A stretch of 64,000 nt of DNA. Origin: Roseivirga sp. (GTDB taxonomy: Bacteria > Bacteroidota > Bacteroidia > Flavobacteriales > Schleiferiaceae). The stretch spans positions 32 to 64,031 of the forward strand of contig JBNMPT010000001.1 in assembly GCA_051277025.1 (NCBI GenBank). The letters are read 5' to 3'. How positions within the stretch are numbered: position 1 is the stretch's first letter; every line of letters begins with the position of its first letter. This document shows, one piece after another, positions 1 through 9,500 of the stretch. The notes below the pieces were generated by a model, which saw nothing but the letters and a program-made list of their open reading frames with translations, was not told where the DNA came from and ran no database searches. The translations under genes and the position numbers were made by a program.

Positions 1-180
1 AAGAATATTGCTCAAGCTGAAACTTCTAGGCATAGGAGTTTTGGAAATTTCATAACTAATCTGGTCGCCAGCCTTATCGCTTATTCCTTTCAAGAAAAGA
101 AACCAAGTATCAAGTTTGAAACAGAAAACTCAAAACAATTGCCTCTTTTTTTTGCTAGATCCCTACGTTGAAATCAGGTT
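1..180 (+). mobile_element. 3' end of an IS982-family element (transposase C-terminus 1..171 plus right terminal inverted repeat); runs off the window edge
   Basis: Frame 1 reads KNIAQAETSRHRSFGNFITNLVASLIAYSFQEKKPSI...*, matching the IS982 Tnp C-terminal 'KN..Q.EHSRHRS..NF..NL...LIAY....KKPSI' pattern; ends in GTTGAAATCAGGTT (167-180), like the CGAACTCAGGTT ends of IS982 elements. Confidence 0.85.
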
Positions 181-416
181 AAAAGGTTCTAACCTTCCCT
201 CACAATCCAACAATACGGTGGATACTTCACAAAGAGAACTCACCCCACTAAAGGCGGCATATAGCAAGGTTATTAAGTGGTCGAAGGTCATAAATCGTTT
301 GTAATAACGATTTATGATGTGCTTCAATACGGTCGGAGAGATTATTGAGGTGGGGTGCCGTTTTAGCAGTTCTTTAATCAGGGTTTTTTAGTTGGTGAGA
401 AAAACTAAATTACCAC

Positions 417-474
417 AAAGCGGAATTTACTTCTGGGAAATCCCGCTTTTAAAAAGTTTTACCGGACACTAATG
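417..474 (+). mobile_element. Possible right end of a Bacteroidota IS4-family element (hairpin followed by terminal TTTTACCGGACACTAATG)
   Basis: Hairpin AAAGCGGAATTT..AAATCCCGCTTT (417-449), then TTTTACCGGACACTAATG (457-474), resembling IS4-family right ends as I recall them; no transposase ORF remains. Confidence 0.45.
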
Positions 475-687
475 ATTCTTAATGGAAAATAAATCCGAAG
501 CAGTGATCCGTGTTTTTATTCAGTCGAAAAAATATAAGCTCATTAAAAAAGCTGAAGCCTATTTGCAAAACCTCTATTTTAGCCTAGAGTATTAGAAAGT
601 ATTGGCTTTATACCATTCCAGCCAAACTAGGGAGAATATTTTTTTTGCGAAGACTCCTCTTGAACGTCGTTTGAAAAAGAGAATTAA

Positions 688-2523
688 ATGAAAAATCTAC
701 TTCTTACAATCCTTATACTTTTTTCAGGAATTTCCTTGAAGGCCGAAACCAAGCTTGATTCTATTTTTACGGTCTGGCAGGATGAAACACAAGCTGACAC
801 AAGCAGACTGCAAGCTATCCACAAATTTATCCTCCAGGGCTATATATACAACCAACCTGATTCAGCTTATTATTTTGCCCAAAAACAGTTGGACTTTGCC
901 GAAAGGAAAGGACTAAGTAAATACATAGCCTTAGCATTAACAACTCAGGGACTTTCACTTCGAATTAGAGGTGACTATCCCAACTCTCTTGTTTATCATA
1001 AAAAAAGCATGCTATTTTATGAGGAAATAGGGGATAAAACCGGTATCGCTGGTGCTTTGGTTAATATTGGGAATCTCTATGCTATTCAAAGCAATTTTGA
1101 TAAAGCCTTGGAATATTTTGAGCAAGGCGCTTCTATTTGCGAAGAAATTGGTGAAACCTATTTTTTGGCCAACGCCACGCTTAACATTGGCTCAATTTAC
1201 CAAATGCAAGGCGAATACACTAGATCCCTTAAATATTTCCTGAAAAGCTTAAAAATCTACCAAGAGAACCAGTACAAAACCGAGATCGCTGACGCACAAT
1301 ATAATATAGGTGGGGTCTACGAAGAAGATGGTGATTTTCCTAAAGCGCTAGACTTTTACCTACAAAGTTTAGAAAGCTATGAGGAATTAGAAGATAAGTA
1401 TGGAATTACATTTTCTCTAGTTTCAATTGGTAACGTTTATTTCAAGCAGGGCTTGACGGATGATGCAATTAGTCAATGTGAAAAATCACTCAATTTCGCA
1501 AAGGAAATAAATTCAATTGATCGCCAAGAAGCAGCATGTATATGTCTTTACGATGTCTACAAGGCGATTGGGAATGACAAGAGTGCTCTGAAGTATCATG
1601 AACAAATGTTAATATTATCAGATAGCTTACAAGCGGAAGAAACCAATTTGAAACTGCAAAAAATGGATTTTCAGAAGCGAATGTTAGCCGATAGCATGGC
1701 TACTGTTGAAAGAGAACGCTTGGTGCAAGAAGAGCATCAAGAGGAAGTAAAACAAAAGAACCAAATTCGCAATATGCTAGTCGGAGGTGGGGTCTTGATT
1801 CTGATCATTGCCAGTGGAATCTATAGCCGTCTGAGATATACTAATAGGGCCAAAAAAATTATCGAGAAAGAGAAAGAACGATCCGAAAACCTCTTACTTA
1901 ACATACTACCCGCCAATATAGCCGCTGAATTAAAAGAAAAGGGCCGAGCCGAAGCACGAGAGTTTGAAATGGTTAGCACCCTCTTTTCAGACTTTAAAGG
2001 TTTTACCGCAGCAAGTGAAAAATTGAGCGCTCAAGAGTTGGTTGCGGAAATCAATACTTGTTTCGAAGCTTTTGATAATATAATGGGCAAATACAATATT
2101 GAGAAAATAAAAACCATTGGCGATGCTTATATGGCGGCCGGCGGTCTTCCTGTCCCATCAGACGGTTCTGCTAAAAACACTGTGCTTGCTGCGCTAGAAA
2201 TGCAAGCTTTTATTTCTGCTAGAAAAATTAAAATGGATACCCTAGGCAAACCTGCTTTTGAAATGCGTGTCGGCATTCATACCGGACCCGTAGTTGCGGG
2301 CATTGTGGGCGTTAAAAAATTCCAGTATGACATTTGGGGTGACACCGTTAACACTGCCAGCCGCATGGAGTCTTCTGGAGGCGTTGGTAAAGTAAATATA
2401 AGCCAAGCTACTTATGAACTTCTCAAGAATGATCTAAAGTTTATCTTTGAATCTCGCGGCAAAATTGAAGCAAAAGGAAAAGGCGAAATGGAGATGTGGT
2501 TTGTTTCAATGAATAGCCAATAG
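688..2523 (+). CDS. TPR-repeat, single-TM class III adenylate/guanylate cyclase (ATP-specific motifs)
   Basis: Signal peptide, TPR repeats, TM (MLVGGGVLILIIASGIY), LLLNILP helix, FSDFKGF, EKIKTIGDAYM, YDIWGDTVNTASRME; Lys and Asp specificity residues indicate ATP. Confidence 0.93.
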   Translation: MKNLLLTILILFSGISLKAETKLDSIFTVWQDETQADTSRLQAIHKFILQGYIYNQPDSAYYFAQKQLDFAERKGLSKYIALALTTQGLSLRIRGDYPNSLVYHKKSMLFYEEIGDKTGIAGALVNIGNLYAIQSNFDKALEYFEQGASICEEIGETYFLANATLNIGSIYQMQGEYTRSLKYFLKSLKIYQENQYKTEIADAQYNIGGVYEEDGDFPKALDFYLQSLESYEELEDKYGITFSLVSIGNVYFKQGLTDDAISQCEKSLNFAKEINSIDRQEAACICLYDVYKAIGNDKSALKYHEQMLILSDSLQAEETNLKLQKMDFQKRMLADSMATVERERLVQEEHQEEVKQKNQIRNMLVGGGVLILIIASGIYSRLRYTNRAKKIIEKEKERSENLLLNILPANIAAELKEKGRAEAREFEMVSTLFSDFKGFTAASEKLSAQELVAEINTCFEAFDNIMGKYNIEKIKTIGDAYMAAGGLPVPSDGSAKNTVLAALEMQAFISARKIKMDTLGKPAFEMRVGIHTGPVVAGIVGVKKFQYDIWGDTVNTASRMESSGGVGKVNISQATYELLKNDLKFIFESRGKIEAKGKGEMEMWFVSMNSQ

Positions 2524-2528
2524 CGAAA

Positions 2529-4658
2529 ATGACTAACAATACATATCATACTTATGGTCAAATGAAAAAGGCAAAGAAAGCCTCTTTCTCATTTCTCCTT
2601 ACTTGGTTTACAATTCATTGTTCGCTATTCACAGTCCATGCACAAGAGGTTAAGACCGATTCCCTTTGGAATATATGGATTGACGAAACGCAAGCAGACA
2701 CCACACGATTAAAAGCCATACACACAATTGGCCTTAATGGCAACAGCACTCTTCAGCCTGACTCTGCCTTCTACTATTCCCAAATGGAGTATAACTTTGC
2801 TAAAGCAAAGGCCCTTAAAAAACAAATGGCGGATGCCTTAAGTACCCAAGGAAGTTCATTTTATCATAAAAACGACTTTATCCAAGCCAGGCAATACCAT
2901 AATAGAAGCTTAGAGCTAAGTGAAGAAATCGCAGATAAAAAAGGAATTGCCCTTTCCCAAATCAATATTGGATACACCTTTAGAAAAAAAGGAGACTATA
3001 CAAAAGCCATCGAGCACTATCAAAAAGGTCTAAAGATTCGAGAAGAAAGTGGTGATAAAAATGAAATTGCTAAGGCGGTAAGCAGCATTGGACTTATGTA
3101 CGATTTACAAGGAGACTACCCGAAAGCGCTAGACTATTACCAACGTAGTTTAAAAATTTTAGAGGACCTTGGAGATAAACTCGGCATTGCTAGGGCCATA
3201 AGCAGTATTGGACTTATGTACGATTTTCAAGGTGACTACCCGAAAGCGCTAGATTATTACCAACGCAGTTTGAAGATTTGTGAGGAAATGGGATATGAAT
3301 GGGGCATATCTATGAACCTAAATAACATTGGTCTTATCTACGATAATCAAAAGGACTACTCCAAAGCGCTAGATTACTATCAGCGCAGTTTGAAGATCTC
3401 AGAGGAAGATGGAGACAAAGACGATCGTGCCATTGCACTTAGCAATATTGGAGAGATTTATAGTAATCAAGAAAATTATGAGCAAGCCTTCTCCTATTTT
3501 GAACGTAGCTTAAAAATAAGCGAAGAAATAGGAGATCGATTGAAAATGACGCATCCCTTAAGGGGTATTGGAAATGCCTATAGAAAACAAGGTCAATACA
3601 AGAAAGCTATTAGTCAATGTTTAAGGTCCCTTAAAATAAGTGAGGAAATGGGAGCTACTTTCGAACAGAAAGGTGCTTGTGAATGCTTGTATGAGTCCTA
3701 TAAAGCTCTCGGCTTGGGCAGCAAAGCTCTAGATTACTATGAGCAAATGATCGTACTTAAGGATAGCCTTTTTAATGAAGAGAATACCAAGAAACTTACT
3801 CGCATTGAACTTCAATATGAGTATGACAAAAAGGAAGCGGCCTCCAAATTAGAGCAAGAAAAAAAGGATGTTCTTGCTACAGAAGAATTAAGAAGAAATA
3901 AACTTATCAGAAATGTCTTTATGGGCGGCTTTGCGGTGGTTTTATTATTTGCAGTTGCATTTCTTAGCCAACGAAACAAAATTAAAAAAAGCAAAAAGCA
4001 AAGTGATGACCTTTTACTAAACATTTTGCCTGCCGAAGTAGCTGAAGAACTAAAAGCCAAAGGCCAAACCGAGGCCAAGCATTATAATCAAGCATCTATT
4101 TTATTTACAGATTTCAAAGGCTTTACAAATGCGGCGGAAACCTTAAGTCCTAAAGAGTTGGTAGATGAGATTAACATCTGCTTCATCGCTTTTGACCATA
4201 TCTGCGAAAAGTATAACATCGAAAAAATAAAAACCATTGGAGACGCATACATGGCAGCAAGTGGGCTATTCGATCAAGGTACCAAAACGCAAATTTCTCA
4301 GGCTAACTTGATTAAAGGTGCTCTAGAAATGCAAGCTTTTATGATTACTAGAAGTAAAGAATTAGAATTTAAAGACATAACAGGATTTCAAATGCGGGCT
4401 GGTATACATACTGGGCCAGTAGTAGCAGGAATTGTGGGAATTAAAAAATTCCAATATGACATTTGGGGAGATTCAGTAAATACGGCCAGCCGAATGGAAA
4501 GTCATGGTGAAGTGGGACGGGTTAATATTAGCGAAGCTACCTATCGCTTGCTTAAAGACGAGTCAGATTTCACTTTTGAAAGCCGCGGTAAGATTGAAGC
4601 CAAGGGAAAAGGGAAAATGGAAATGTACTTTGTGAACTTCAAAACTGACAAATTTTAG
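2529..4658 (+). CDS. TPR-repeat, single-TM class III adenylate/guanylate cyclase (paralog; start may be 2562)
   Basis: Signal peptide, ~8 TPRs, TM, FTDFKGF, EKIKTIGDAYM, YDIWGDSVNTASRME. Confidence 0.93.
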   Translation: MTNNTYHTYGQMKKAKKASFSFLLTWFTIHCSLFTVHAQEVKTDSLWNIWIDETQADTTRLKAIHTIGLNGNSTLQPDSAFYYSQMEYNFAKAKALKKQMADALSTQGSSFYHKNDFIQARQYHNRSLELSEEIADKKGIALSQINIGYTFRKKGDYTKAIEHYQKGLKIREESGDKNEIAKAVSSIGLMYDLQGDYPKALDYYQRSLKILEDLGDKLGIARAISSIGLMYDFQGDYPKALDYYQRSLKICEEMGYEWGISMNLNNIGLIYDNQKDYSKALDYYQRSLKISEEDGDKDDRAIALSNIGEIYSNQENYEQAFSYFERSLKISEEIGDRLKMTHPLRGIGNAYRKQGQYKKAISQCLRSLKISEEMGATFEQKGACECLYESYKALGLGSKALDYYEQMIVLKDSLFNEENTKKLTRIELQYEYDKKEAASKLEQEKKDVLATEELRRNKLIRNVFMGGFAVVLLFAVAFLSQRNKIKKSKKQSDDLLLNILPAEVAEELKAKGQTEAKHYNQASILFTDFKGFTNAAETLSPKELVDEINICFIAFDHICEKYNIEKIKTIGDAYMAASGLFDQGTKTQISQANLIKGALEMQAFMITRSKELEFKDITGFQMRAGIHTGPVVAGIVGIKKFQYDIWGDSVNTASRMESHGEVGRVNISEATYRLLKDESDFTFESRGKIEAKGKGKMEMYFVNFKTDKF
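3066..3400 (+). repeat. 120-bp-period tandem repeats encoding near-identical TPR units
   Basis: AGCAGCATTGGACTTATGTACGATTTACAAGGAGACTACCCGAAAGCGCTAGACTATTACCAACG (3081) recurs almost exactly at 3201 and more loosely at 3321. Confidence 0.85.
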
Positions 4659-5181
4659 AGCAACTTAGAGTCGTATCAAAGGCTTGGCCCAAATAATAAC
4701 GATATGCAACTTTCAGCAGCTAATACCTGCGGTGCTCTTATGCTGTGTTTCGATTTCCATCACAAAGTTATTTTACACAAAAATATATGGCTTTGTTTTA
4801 GTTTAAAACTTGTTAGTATTAGTAGATAATTTTCCTATTAAATCTCAAAAACGTAAATTTCAGTCCTTCATTATATATTGATACAGCTCTATTAAGCGGT
4901 TCAACTGCAGTAAGTGGTGGCAAAGGAATGAATGACTCAAAGACCTTTAATTTAACTATAGCTAAGTTACTGCTTATTCTATCTTGCATTCCTTTTGAGA
5001 AGCAATTAGTGAGTGACTCCTTTCAAAGTCATTCACTGATTAAAAACCAATAATTGTTATTTACTGAAATTGTTAATTTAGAGAAATCATAGACCGACCT
5101 TCGTTTTGAGTCGATTTAATAGAAAATCACATAATTTTTTCTTAATGACTGCCAAAGGCAAGGATTAAATCCCCGATAGTA

Positions 5182-6000
5182 ATGAAAATAAAATTTTACG
5201 GTACTAGAGGCGCCATTCCCGTTTCTGATAAAGATTTTCTAGAATTTGGAGGCAATACTACCTCGATAAAAATAACCCGAGATAATGGTCATATTGCTAT
5301 TGTGGATTCAGGCACAGGTATTCGTAATTTAGGTAACGATCTACTTAAGGATGGCTTTCTTCAAGATGAATTAATTATCGTCTTTACTCATTTTCATTGG
5401 GATCATATTCAAGGTTTTCCTTTTTTCGCACCTGCCTATAATCCTAATGGGATCATTAATATACTTGCTATGGGAAAAGACAGAGAAATTATAAACCTTG
5501 AGGATATTTTCAGAGGACAAATGAAAACTGAATATTTTCCAGTCCCATTGGAAGATATGGGTGCCAAATTCAATTTTCTGCAAATTGAAAAGAATGAATT
5601 GAAAAGCAATGGTGCCTTAATCAAAGTGATTAAACAAAACCATCCCGGTGATTCCTATGGTTATCGTTTGGAGGAAAATGGTAAAGTTTTAGTGGTTTGT
5701 ACGGATCTAGAACATGGGAATTCGGTTCAAGCAGATATCGTAGAGTTTTGCAAGGACGCAGATTTATTAGTGCATGATGCCCAATATACAAGCGAAGAGC
5801 TTCAAAATCACCGTGGTTGGGGACACAGCAGCTATGAGCAAGCAATAGAAGTAGCGGAAAGAGCTAATGTTAAGAAACTCGTTATAACCCATCATGACCC
5901 AGACCATAACGATGTATTTTTAACAAATATTGAAAAAGAATGCCAAAAAAGATATCCCAAATGTGTTCTGGCAAGAGAAGGAATGGAATTTACAATATAA
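5182..6000 (+). CDS. MBL-fold metallohydrolase, putative cyclic-nucleotide phosphodiesterase
   Basis: FYGTRGAIP...GGNT, DSGTG, THFHWDHIQG (HxHxDH), HPG, DLEH, HDAQY, GWGHS, THHDP; this family is often found beside class III cyclases; substrate is inferred. Confidence 0.85.
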   Translation: MKIKFYGTRGAIPVSDKDFLEFGGNTTSIKITRDNGHIAIVDSGTGIRNLGNDLLKDGFLQDELIIVFTHFHWDHIQGFPFFAPAYNPNGIINILAMGKDREIINLEDIFRGQMKTEYFPVPLEDMGAKFNFLQIEKNELKSNGALIKVIKQNHPGDSYGYRLEENGKVLVVCTDLEHGNSVQADIVEFCKDADLLVHDAQYTSEELQNHRGWGHSSYEQAIEVAERANVKKLVITHHDPDHNDVFLTNIEKECQKRYPKCVLAREGMEFTI

Positions 6001-6390
6001 TTTTGAGTCGTAATCAGAATGAAAATCTGCTGATACTCACGTCTGATATGTAAATTGCATTTAAAGGAATCTACGTCTGACTCTTAAAGCAATTACATAA
6101 AGTTACCTTAAACCCAAGGCTGATACGGCATTGAATACTTTGTATTATCATCGCTCTTTTAGCATTGTCAATGTCCTGATTGACAGATGGTGTAAAATCG
6201 TTCACACTAAAAATAATTCATAGCACAAGAAAATCGTCTTAGGTCCTGACTTAATCTATTCGTGATTATTTAAACGTGTCGAAACTTTTCTCTGCAGTTA
6301 AAGGCGCTCGCAGAGAACTCCCTCAAGCCCCCTTCTCACTCACCATCATAAACATTCAACTCAGTTCCCAGCAAACATTTTTCACAAATC

Positions 6391-6505
6391 AAAAGCCCTA
6401 TTCCGTCGATTATAAGCCGTTTAATAATTTGGCTACTTTCCTTCTATTAATATGAACTAAATAAAGCCATATTACTATGAACAATATCGACAAAACAGGG
6501 CTTTT
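6391..6505 (-). other. Long imperfect hairpin (~115 nt) between convergent genes, in the 3' region of the halogenase operon
   Basis: Outer arms 6391-6410 and 6486-6505 (17/20 complementary), inner arms 6422-6434 and 6465-6477; four of the five mismatches become G-U pairs on the minus strand; the minus-strand stem ends in UUUU. Confidence 0.7.
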
Positions 6506-6590
6506 AAGCGCTATTTATTTTAGTTAAAGCCTTAATATTTACCTGAAAAAAGTCGGGTGATTATTAAGTTTTCCAGTACCCTAACTATTA

Positions 6591-9500
6591 TTAACTTTCA
6601 AATGAAATAATTAGCTTGTCAGATGTTGGTCTAGCTTGGCAGGCTAAAATCATTCCGCGTTTCTTTTGTCCTTTCGACAAAGCGTCATCAATATCCATCT
6701 CTGCTGTCCCTTCTACTACCCGACAAATACATGTTCCACAGAAACCTTCTTCACAAGAGAAAGGTGCGTCCACTCCCACTTCTGCAGCGGATTCAGTTAG
6801 ATAACAACCTTCCATATTAGGAACGATGTGTTCTTCACCAAAAATATTCATGGTTATCGTTTTCGCTGCTATCACTTGCGTAGCTTTTGCTACCGCTTCA
6901 ACTTTTGGCGCCTCTTGGCTTTTAACTTTCTTCTTTGGTGATGCAAATTTTTCAACATGAACACGATCATCATCAACGCCCATATCCAACAAGCCCTCTT
7001 CTACAACATCCATAAAGCCCCAAGGACCACAAACAAAATAGAGTCCGCTCGTAATTTCGTCACAATATGATTGCACATCACGAGTATCGATACGACCTTC
7101 TGCTTTGCCTAATCGATGAATAACCTTAAAGCGCTTATTATACTGTTTTTTTAGGGCATCCAACTCGTTACGGAATATGGTTTCTTCTTTATTCCTATTC
7201 ACGTAAACAAAACGCACCTTACGATCAGAAGTATTTAAAAATTCTTTAGCAATAGATAAAACCGCCGTAACCCCACTGCCCGCAGCGAATAAATACAAAT
7301 CACCCTTTTTATCTGGTACTGTGAAACGTCCGTCTGGTGCGAGAGCGTTTAAACTATCACCAGCCTTGATATTATCGCATAACCAGTTACTTACCATACC
7401 ACCCTTAACACGTTTAACCGTAATACGCAAATCGTCATCAATACTTGGGGCGCTAGATAATGAATAGGCTCTTTTATGTGTCTCTCCCTCAATATCTAAC
7501 GATAAGGTTAAAAACTGACCAGGTCTATAGCTTAGGTATTCCTCTTTTAAATCATCTGGGACGCTTATGTAGAACGACTTACTGTCGGCAGTTTCTTCTG
7601 CAACTCTTGCCACCTTTAGTTCATTGAACATCTTTTTTGTTCGCTTAACTTGGGTGGTCGAAGCCTCTACTTTAACTGCTGTTAAAGCTGAGGTTTCGAC
7701 CTTGGCCGTTGATTCTATACTTGCCGTTACTGCTGTTACATCATTTTTTTTTTTTAAAGAAGCAAGGATTGATGTATCACCCATAAACTGGTCTGGATTA
7801 TCTGTCCCACAATTTGGACAGCCTTTTAACACATCGTCTTGATAATAATTACACGTTGGGCACTGGTAAACTTTAAAGTAAGCACGAGGCTTATTTAATT
7901 TATTAATCACTCGATTTCCGTCACCATCGAAATTATTAAAGACGGTATTGAAATCAATACCCTTCGTTTTACCTATATCGCGACACATTTTATTAAATGG
8001 ATCGATGATCGCGGCAATGTCATGAGCCATTTTTTCGGGGTCACTTTGATCGGCTTCAAACTTCTTTTCTATTTCTCTTACCTCTTTTATTAAACCTGTC
8101 CAGGTCGGATTTAAAGGATCAAATACATATGGGTCACGGCTACTATAATGGCCTTTGGCTAATACATCTATGCCTCCCCAATGAAATTTAGCATTCATGG
8201 TTTTCTCAAATGCTAAAGGGTGTGCCCAAGAGCGATATAACATATCAGTTTCTTGAACTAATACCGGGTATAACTCAGAGCCATATTTAGAGTATTCTGC
8301 AAAAGCGCTTTCTTCATAATTTTTTTCGTCTAGGGCTTTTACAGTATCAACAGCAGCCATGTAGGATGTTCCACTTCCGTAGTTAATACCGTGCGAGAAT
8401 AAGGGGTTAGAGAATTGTGCGCTATCTCCAATTGCCACCCAACCCTTACCTGCTACTTGGGTCGAGTCGTGCGCTAAACCTAAGAATGCAGCATATGGGC
8501 GGCGCTTTTCTCGGTAAGGTTTTTCAACTAATTCATAATGCTCAAGTATCCAAGCAAAAGCTGGGTACCTTTCTGCATAATGCATAAATCTTTTTTGAAT
8601 CGGTAAATCTTTCGCGGTATCCATATCATCACGAACGGTAATACCGATGGATGTAATAGGTTCAAATTCAGTACCATGCTTTTCTTGAAAGAACTTTCGT
8701 GGTGGTACATCAGAATCTTCCTCAGAATCATGGTCCATCACGTCATTCACCATTTTCAACATGGTTTCATCATCTGCACTTTCCCACGAATGAACCGTAA
8801 TAAACCAAATCCAACCTTGAGGCGTGCATAAATGACGAGTGGCTGGTTCTTGCCATCTCGCTAAAGGCACCTGCTTCTTTTGTCTAAAATATGCAAAGTA
8901 GCAGTTGGTCTGAAATGTGTCGTGAATCGCAGGGTCTTTTCTATAAGTACCTAAGTGACGTGGAAGGACTGCCGCTGGGCCAGTAGCATCACATACAAAA
9001 CGGGATTTAATGGTAAACGATTCGCCATTTTCATCAATACATGCCAATTGTTTAACTTTCCCATCTAATTGACAATCGTCAATTTCAACATGTGTATTAA
9101 CCTTAAAATCAATACCTTGCTCCTTAGTTAAACGCTGTAATGCCATTTCAAAGACACGTCGTTCAATTTGAAAAGTTTCTTCCAAATCGGTAATATCACA
9201 TTCGCTTTCTGGCTCTTTGCTTTCTGTTCCCATCCACCAAAAACGGATACCTCCTTTGTTTCCAAATAAGCGACGCATTTGAGGCATGGTGAATCCCATC
9301 GCTAGAAAGCACCTTACCGTGGTTGAAAGTGTGGATTCACCGACTTTATAACCGGGGACTTGTCTTCTTTCTAAGATAACGACTTTGCTTTCAGGTCGCA
9401 TACGTTTAACCCATTGGGCATAAATCATACCCATTGGTCCGCCACCTAATACCGCTACGTCGTAATCTACCTCTGAATCATCACTTAAGGGTGCTGAAAT

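Follow-up and report, generated by a model that had tools for sequence, protein, structure and literature searches.

The window, a stretch of 64,000 nucleotides from a Roseivirga sp. genome (GenBank assembly GCA_051277025.1, contig JBNMPT010000001.1, positions 32 to 64,031 of the forward strand), carries on its minus strand an open reading frame (ORF) of 3,894 bp (6591..10484) that encodes a protein of 1297 residues and whose 3′ end specifies a reductase. The last 346 residues (aa 952-1297) correspond to window positions 6591-7631 on the minus strand, with the codon of residue 952 beginning at 7631, and the span given in a first-pass annotation of this DNA is exact by the ORF coordinates. That annotation had described the segment as an iron-sulfur (Fe-S) reductase fused to a halogenase. 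Our analysis indicates that the module is probably the halogenase’s own electron supply, because its lineage of reductases occurs only in fusion with this halogenase or beside it; an electron supply of this type is hitherto undescribed for flavin-dependent halogenases. The parts of the protein, listed from its C-terminal end, are these:

6591..6593, minus strand: stop codon of the 1297-residue ORF, from the ORF translation
6624..6845, minus strand: plant-type [2Fe-2S] ferredoxin domain, aa 1214-1287 (Pfam Fer2, E 3.3e-13)
6753-6755, 6738-6740, 6729-6731 and 6639-6641, minus strand: cluster ligands C1244, C1249, C1252 and C1282, respectively
6846..6935, minus strand: Lys/Ala/Val-rich linker of ~30 residues between the NAD and ferredoxin domains, aa 1184-1213, variable in length and sequence
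6999..7289, minus strand: NAD(P)H-binding domain, aa 1066-1162 (Pfam NAD_binding_1, E 7.3e-12), with AAGSGVTA, VCGPWGFM and GRIDTRDVQ
7323..7616, minus strand: flavin-binding beta-barrel of the ferredoxin-NADP reductase (FNR) type, aa 957-1054 (Pfam FAD_binding_6, E 1.1e-11), with RAYSLSS, ITVKR and GGMVSNWL
7632..7772, minus strand: disordered halogenase-reductase linker, aa 905-951, with low model confidence and unconserved in the alignment
7773..9467, minus strand: flavin-dependent halogenase domain of the MalA type, aa 340-904, with a Zn ribbon at its C-terminal end, from matches to MalA′; the presumed electron acceptor
9495..10484, minus strand: aa 1-330, two cyclic-nucleotide-binding domains on the N-terminal side of the halogenase (two stretches matched by Pfam cNMP_binding, E 1.7e-34)

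By its sequence, the segment 952-1297 is a complete NAD(P)H-dependent iron-sulfur flavoprotein reductase, with a set of motifs far beyond chance. The proposal that it is an FNR plus [2Fe-2S] module of the PaaE/KshB type is upheld by the order of its Pfam domains and by the best NCBIfam model, that of PaaE (TIGR02160, E 3.4e-73, 246.5 bits, model positions 1-351 of 352), with GbcB and Hcr next. All of the motifs named in the first-pass annotation are present (RAYSLSS at 1005-1011, GGMVSNWL at 1028-1035, AAGSGVTA at 1067-1074, VCGPWGFM at 1151-1158), as is the plant-type cysteine motif C1244-x4-C1249-x2-C1252-x29-C1282. The flavin motifs RxYS and GxxS/T, the NAD motifs GxGxxP and CGP and the terminal E-x-F (EKF) can all be recognized, the proline of GxGxxP, which is kept in most relatives, being alanine in the window protein. 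The four cluster cysteines are invariant across fused members of the family; an additional cysteine, C1254, is not conserved. Every cofactor motif of the PaaE/KshB class, the four cysteines included, is kept in the halogenase-associated reductases (14/14, fused or split, 50-80% identity), and the predicted cofactors of the module are FAD or FMN and a [2Fe-2S] cluster. Its relatives with solved structures are the BenC reductase, the FAD/NAD modules of flavohaemoglobins and phthalate dioxygenase reductase.

Narrower assignments were rejected. The score against TIGR02160 falls short of the equivalog cut-off of 420.8 bits and PaaA is not matched in the same, 74%-complete genome, so the protein is not taken for a PaaE orthologue. 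The Fre model is reached at 38 bits, its cut-off being 230, and the presence of an Fe-S domain likewise speaks against a Fre-type flavin reductase, while the absence of a PF01613 match in the protein excludes the HpaC/PrnF/RebF type. The earlier statement that the reductase is not of the Fre/PrnF type is thus correct.

Sequence databases and genomes were surveyed for the fused, split and reductase-less forms. In a search of 5.8 billion proteins, no more than eight relatives were fused (1109-1313 aa, 48-76% identity), and five halogenases with cyclic-nucleotide-binding domains were unfused (717-793 aa). A scan of species-representative genomes yielded 17 loci (L001-L017), and the reductase is present in four:

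L001: Flavobacteriales metagenome-assembled genome (MAG), fused, 79-90% identity
L002: delta-proteobacterial MAG, fused
L003: Chloroflexia, fused, 1129 aa
L004: Chloroflexia, split; halogenase at 10474..12801 (775 aa, the same protein as P0011), reductase at 12852..13859 (335 aa)

The fused form is known from Bacteroidota, a delta-proteobacterial MAG and Chloroflexia (P0001-P0008, L001-L003). At L004 the separate FNR-Fer2 gene starts ~50 bp downstream of the halogenase gene and in a different frame. This split form is real and not a sequencing error, since the unfused halogenases P0009-P0011 share similar basic C-terminal tails and since stand-alone reductases of 336 aa (P0016, P0017) exist with 53-55% identity to the window module. 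Beyond these two, the identity of reductases is at most 46%, in a generic ‘KshB/ferredoxin-NADP reductase’ pool of 4,714 matches at E < 1e-20. In a FastTree phylogeny of 134 reductase domains, the 15 halogenase-associated sequences form one clade with a Shimodaira-Hasegawa-like support of 100 and zero outsiders. An exhaustive HMMER search of 1.84 billion representatives at 50% identity found both halves of the protein matched only by P0005, with ~20 other MalA-like representatives matching the halogenase half alone. One clade in the tree and one representative with both halves indicate that the reductase was recruited once, by one narrow halogenase lineage, and has been fused or adjacent to it thereafter. 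In L004 (9983-10477) and L002 (10001-10420) the first cyclic-nucleotide-binding domain is encoded on its own, by a short ORF immediately upstream of the halogenase gene, and the family is therefore split or fused at both ends. The halogenase-reductase linker of the window protein contains a run of twelve A (window 7744-7755, minus strand) that encodes Lys-Lys-Lys; a run of ten lies at the same place in the closest relative (L001, 2469-2478). A slip at the longer run would remove the reductase, and in a MAG such a run may also cause an assembly error.

Comparison of the clade with 117 outgroup reductases revealed clade-specific residues against a background in which all cofactor motifs are retained. 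The clade-specific positions are R1131, T1134/R1135/D1136 (within GRIDTRDVQ), W1155/G1156 and K1271/G1272/Q1273, the last three of which replace D, D and E of the outgroup and fall in a basic stretch, S-K-G-Q-K-K-R, at aa 1270-1276. We take this stretch, counting back from the fourth cysteine, to correspond to residues 67-73 of plant-type ferredoxins, the classical acidic patch for partner docking. The acidic-to-basic reversal suggests a change in the acceptor on which the ferredoxin domain docks. Within the halogenase domain, E428, E467, D571, D581, E659 and D844 are conserved in the reductase-associated proteins and are H, R, P, Y, G and P, respectively, in the unassociated ones; these acidic residues are a lead, no firmer than that, to a counterpart of the basic ferredoxin patch.

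The halogenase domain itself is well defined. MalA′ is the best sequence match in the PDB for residues 340-904 (E 1.9e-45) and the best structural match (Z 37.3, root-mean-square deviation (rmsd) 2.6 Å over 561 residues), and MalA′ can be aligned to the family profile over residues 30-618, a span that takes in the four Zn-ribbon cysteines. Pfam also marks a Trp_halogenase/FAD_oxidored region starting at residue 342. The GxGxxG motif is present as GGGPMG (residues 347-352), the catalytic lysine K410 (in LFGNKGGIRF) is kept in 12 of 13 family members, and W558 and W560 of the WxWxIP motif are invariant, with the proline of that motif replaced by threonine. The catalytic Glu494 of MalA′ lands in an insert of the profile alignment, and a nearly invariant residue, D773, adjoins that position. 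Weak NCBIfam matches of the domain are to QhpG, LodB, GoxB and geranylgeranyl reductases. The most divergent fused member, P0008 (1109 aa), has KPEESLL for KVGESTL and an intact reductase.

An AlphaFold2 model of residues 330-1297, based on a 65-sequence alignment, has a mean predicted local distance difference test score (pLDDT) of 87.2 and a predicted template-modelling score (pTM) of 0.81. Disorder in the model is confined to the halogenase-reductase linker (909-949) and the linker between the NAD and ferredoxin domains (~1184-1205), with pLDDT values of 25-37 at model residues 580-620 and below 50 at 855-876, respectively. Because the pTM is 0.81 while the halogenase makes up only 59% of the modelled chain, the model hints weakly at a placement of the reductase against the halogenase. 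The best superposition of the entire reductase module is on the reductase and ferredoxin part of full-length CYP116B46 (6LAA; Z 28.6, rmsd 3.4 Å, 313 residues), with the FNR and ferredoxin parts packed in the same manner as in CYP116B46, in whose crystal structure the cluster lies 7.9 Å from the flavin (PMC7260179).

The surroundings of the gene bear on what else the module might serve. The first-pass annotation had stated that the island carrying the fusion (window 1-13300) encodes no di-iron or Rieske oxygenase, and its gene content bears this out: the island genes are two TPR class-III cyclases, an MBL hydrolase, a Ser/Thr kinase and a TauE-type transporter, and neither an oxygenase nor scaffold-biosynthesis genes occur among these neighbours. 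The cyclases, the MBL hydrolase and the TauE transporter are not conserved beside the relatives of the fusion. Ser/Thr kinase genes do reappear, a few kb from the halogenase at most, at several distant loci (L002 3518-4042, L006 8656-9192, L011 14426-14962, L017 6799-9165), the window copy being at 10561-11361; at L017 the kinase is joined to a receiver domain and a SpoIIE phosphatase domain. The GC content of the island is 0.36-0.41, against 0.40-0.46 in the rest of the window, and it includes a DUF4372 transposase fragment at 12964-13287.

The same annotation had raised the possibility of an oxygenase elsewhere in the genome, which is itself a MAG (1.81 Mb, 187 contigs) with a completeness of 74%. 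In this incomplete genome, PaaA_PaaC and P450 are not matched, and three FA_desaturase genes are present, all on other contigs. Phenol_Hydrox gave no match either, but as it gave none in any of the control genomes this negative is uninformative. The sole Rieske domain found belongs to a fusion with a TPP enzyme and not to an oxygenase; the ORF concerned (L020 1-1776, minus strand, contig C40) has an N-terminal Rieske domain followed by complete TPP_enzyme N, M and C domains. A second FNR-ferredoxin gene, truncated at the start of contig C23, could be the supplier of the desaturases.

Of the options that had been put forward for the module, namely an unusual Fe-S route to the halogenase flavin, a direct flavin-reductase role of the FNR part, or a different chemistry, the evidence favours a reductase dedicated to the halogenase, because the module belongs to one clade, is fused or adjacent, and has a remodelled ferredoxin surface; the Fe-S route is the most likely version of this. 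Specifically, we give about an even chance to the module being the private reductase of a MalA-type halogenase, in which electrons would pass from NAD(P)H to FAD, to the [2Fe-2S] cluster and on to the halogenase-bound FAD. In this scheme NAD(P)H would give a hydride to the reductase flavin, which would hand single electrons to the cluster. The ferredoxin domain, carried on flexible linkers, would then dock on the halogenase domain, where the cluster could reduce the bound FAD in two one-electron steps. With O2 and halide, the reduced FAD would be expected to follow the usual course, from the flavin hydroperoxide (FAD-OOH) to hypohalous acid (HOX) and to Lys410. The cluster appears to be in use and not vestigial, because its ligands are kept in every fused or split member and the ferredoxin surface has been remodelled. 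The analysis establishes what the domains are, that their motifs are intact, that the module is exclusively fused or adjacent to this halogenase, that it arose once and that its ferredoxin surface is remodelled; we infer the cofactor content, the direction of electron flow, the direct transfer from Fe-S to FAD and the halogenation chemistry.

Several observations weigh against a private Fe-S supply. No reductase lies in the flanks (within 10 kb) of loci L005-L017, whose halogenases are 40-47% identical and whose hosts include Chloroflexota, Calothrix, Labedaea and Rhodothermia. A whole-genome search of four genomes of this type found a PaaE-like reductase to be absent in three, and only a 29%-identical copy on another contig in the fourth, Calothrix; the positive control, L004, was recovered at 52% identity. 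As these distant relatives do without the reductase, the halogenase core has no intrinsic need for an Fe-S donor and probably takes reduced flavin of generic origin. The genome of the window also has one PF01613 flavin reductase on another contig. The fused member P0008 has Gln in place of the catalytic Lys. Finally, the two clades are distinguished at 46 of 576 positions of the halogenase, and the acid/base differences could be plain phylogenetic signal.

The main rival, which we regard as unlikely, is that the FNR part acts as a tethered free-flavin reductase making diffusible FADH2, the [2Fe-2S] cluster being accessory, with a stabilizing or regulatory role or as a second, slow route. Classical flavin-dependent halogenases use free FADH2, those relatives of the halogenase that lack the module have to obtain reduced flavin in diffusible form or from a generic source, and Fre, a true flavin reductase, belongs to the same FNR superfamily, although it is a weak match here. 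Against this stand the strict retention of the four cysteines and of the whole ferredoxin domain in all 14 associated reductases, the specific remodelling of the ferredoxin surface, the score of 246 bits for a PaaE-like protein versus 38 for a Fre-like one, and the conserved RxYS and GxxS motifs of tight flavin binders. A further reading, which has a rather small share of our confidence, keeps the reductase as donor to the halogenase-like domain but gives that domain another chemistry under cyclic-nucleotide control, such as hydroxylation or modification of protein residues, release of hypohalous acid, or an O2-independent reduction. It would agree with neighbours that lack scaffold-biosynthesis genes, with the weak matches to the protein-modifying QhpG, LodB and GoxB and to geranylgeranyl reductases, with the position of MalA′ Glu494 in an alignment insert, and with the missing lysine of P0008; QhpG has the halogenase fold, and a ferredoxin has been suggested as its donor (PMC7876137). 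The retention of K410 in 12/13 members, the invariant W558 and W560, the Zn ribbon and D773 beside the Glu494 position argue otherwise, as does MalA′ being by far the best match in both structure and sequence. Reductive dehalogenation and other different chemistries of the kind first suggested are unsupported for the same reason, the conservation of K410 and W558-x-W560.

The remaining explanations are both very improbable. One is that the module serves a separate single-electron oxygenase elsewhere, for example a membrane fatty-acid desaturase, and that its fusion to the halogenase is incidental. The three desaturase genes on other contigs of a MAG that is 74% complete would fit, as FNR-Fer2 fusions to desaturases are common; however, the module is fused or adjacent to the halogenase in three phyla, its clade is exclusive to the halogenase, the desaturases have the FNR-ferredoxin gene of contig C23 available to them, and the island is without an oxygenase. 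The other, similarly far-fetched, is a reversed flow, in which the halogenase-like flavin would oxidize a substrate and electrons would leave through the [2Fe-2S] cluster, followed by the FNR flavin, to NAD(P)+, as with PyrK in dihydroorotate dehydrogenase B. The flavin-FeS-flavin wire of that enzyme does run in this direction, and a fusion of an amine oxidase to FNR-Fer2 exists, but the acceptor domain of the window protein has halogenase-specific residues and the MalA′ fold, and we know of no dehydrogenase of that fold with such a wire.

In the most far-reaching reading, to which we give slightly less than even weight, the window protein would be the first flavin-dependent halogenase in which electrons reach the bound FAD within the molecule, along an Fe-S wire; it would be a natural, self-sufficient single chain, without need of diffusible FADH2 and with a cyclic-nucleotide switch. 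In full-text literature searches, no halogenase turned up that has an Fe-S reductase, that is naturally fused to a reductase or that carries a cyclic-nucleotide-binding domain. Taken alone, the reductase is nothing out of the ordinary within a known superfamily; the novelty lies in its partner and in the route that this implies. Flavin-dependent halogenases are valued biocatalysts that are limited by their requirement for a separate flavin reductase and by the loss of diffusible FADH2 to oxygen, and artificial halogenase-reductase fusions have been built to sidestep these limits. A natural single-chain, NAD(P)H-driven halogenase would be a ready template, and it would add a new case, beyond COQ6, of the Fe-S-mediated reduction of a flavoenzyme with the p-hydroxybenzoate hydroxylase (PHBH) fold.

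Precedents for reduction through ferredoxins are available from other flavoenzymes. The PHBH-fold FAD monooxygenase COQ6 shows no activity with NAD(P)H and depends on FDXR and FDX2 (PMC7615680), and an archaeal geranylgeranyl reductase receives electrons from a ferredoxin of the same operon (PMC6401487). QhpG is a halogenase-fold monooxygenase for which the donor was not identified and the ferredoxin was a suggestion (PMC7876137). The same FNR-Fer2 module is moreover found C-terminal to FAD_binding_3 (P0014, P0139, P0179), Amino_oxidase (P0234) and PNPOx (P0155 and ~80 others) domains; the PNPOx fusions are common in actinomycetes. As the module is fused to several flavoenzymes, electron delivery from it to a flavin has probably arisen several times. 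Flavoenzymes have repeatedly recruited reductases of the PaaE/KshB type, which annotation routinely assigns to di-iron or Rieske oxygenases, and automatic names such as ‘KshB’ are therefore misleading for these reductases.

Among characterized systems, the two-component halogenases (PrnA/PrnF, RebH/RebF) and MalA/MalA′ are the closest on the side of the catalytic domain, with the MalA′ fold, the Zn ribbon, the catalytic lysine and WxWxI shared with the window protein. All of these enzymes rely on a separate reductase of the HpaC (PF01613) or Fre type that releases free FADH2, and in the literature searched none of them has an Fe-S reductase or a natural fusion, whereas the window protein carries an Fe-S reductase. 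On the side of the reductase, PaaE (the phenylacetyl-CoA epoxidase reductase) and KshB (the 3-ketosteroid 9alpha-hydroxylase reductase) have the same domain order and cofactor motifs, and many stand-alone members of their class are ~40% identical to the window reductase. It differs from PaaE and KshB in having a flavoenzyme as partner instead of a di-iron or Rieske oxygenase, a basic instead of an acidic ferredoxin patch and a long linker between FNR and ferredoxin, and in forming a separate clade (support 100). The uncharacterized fusions of FNR-Fer2 to FAD_binding_3, amine oxidase and PNPOx domains have other catalytic domains, and their reductases, 30-37% identical, fall outside the halogenase-associated clade.

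Parts of the proposed route have precedents by analogy in COQ6 with FDXR/FDX2 and in the CYP116B fusions. In the former (also Coq6 with Arh1/Yah1), as in that route, a PHBH-fold FAD enzyme is fed through a ferredoxin reductase and a [2Fe-2S] ferredoxin, but three separate proteins are involved, the ferredoxin is of the adrenodoxin type, and the outcome is hydroxylation instead of halogenation. The CYP116B enzymes (P450-RhF type) follow the same logic as the window protein, with an N-terminal catalytic domain and a C-terminal reductase and ferredoxin joined by linkers in one chain, the reductase module being phthalate-dioxygenase-reductase-like with FMN, NAD and [2Fe-2S] components. Their acceptor is a haem that obligately takes one electron at a time, whereas the presumed acceptor of the window protein is a flavin that would in the end be reduced by two.

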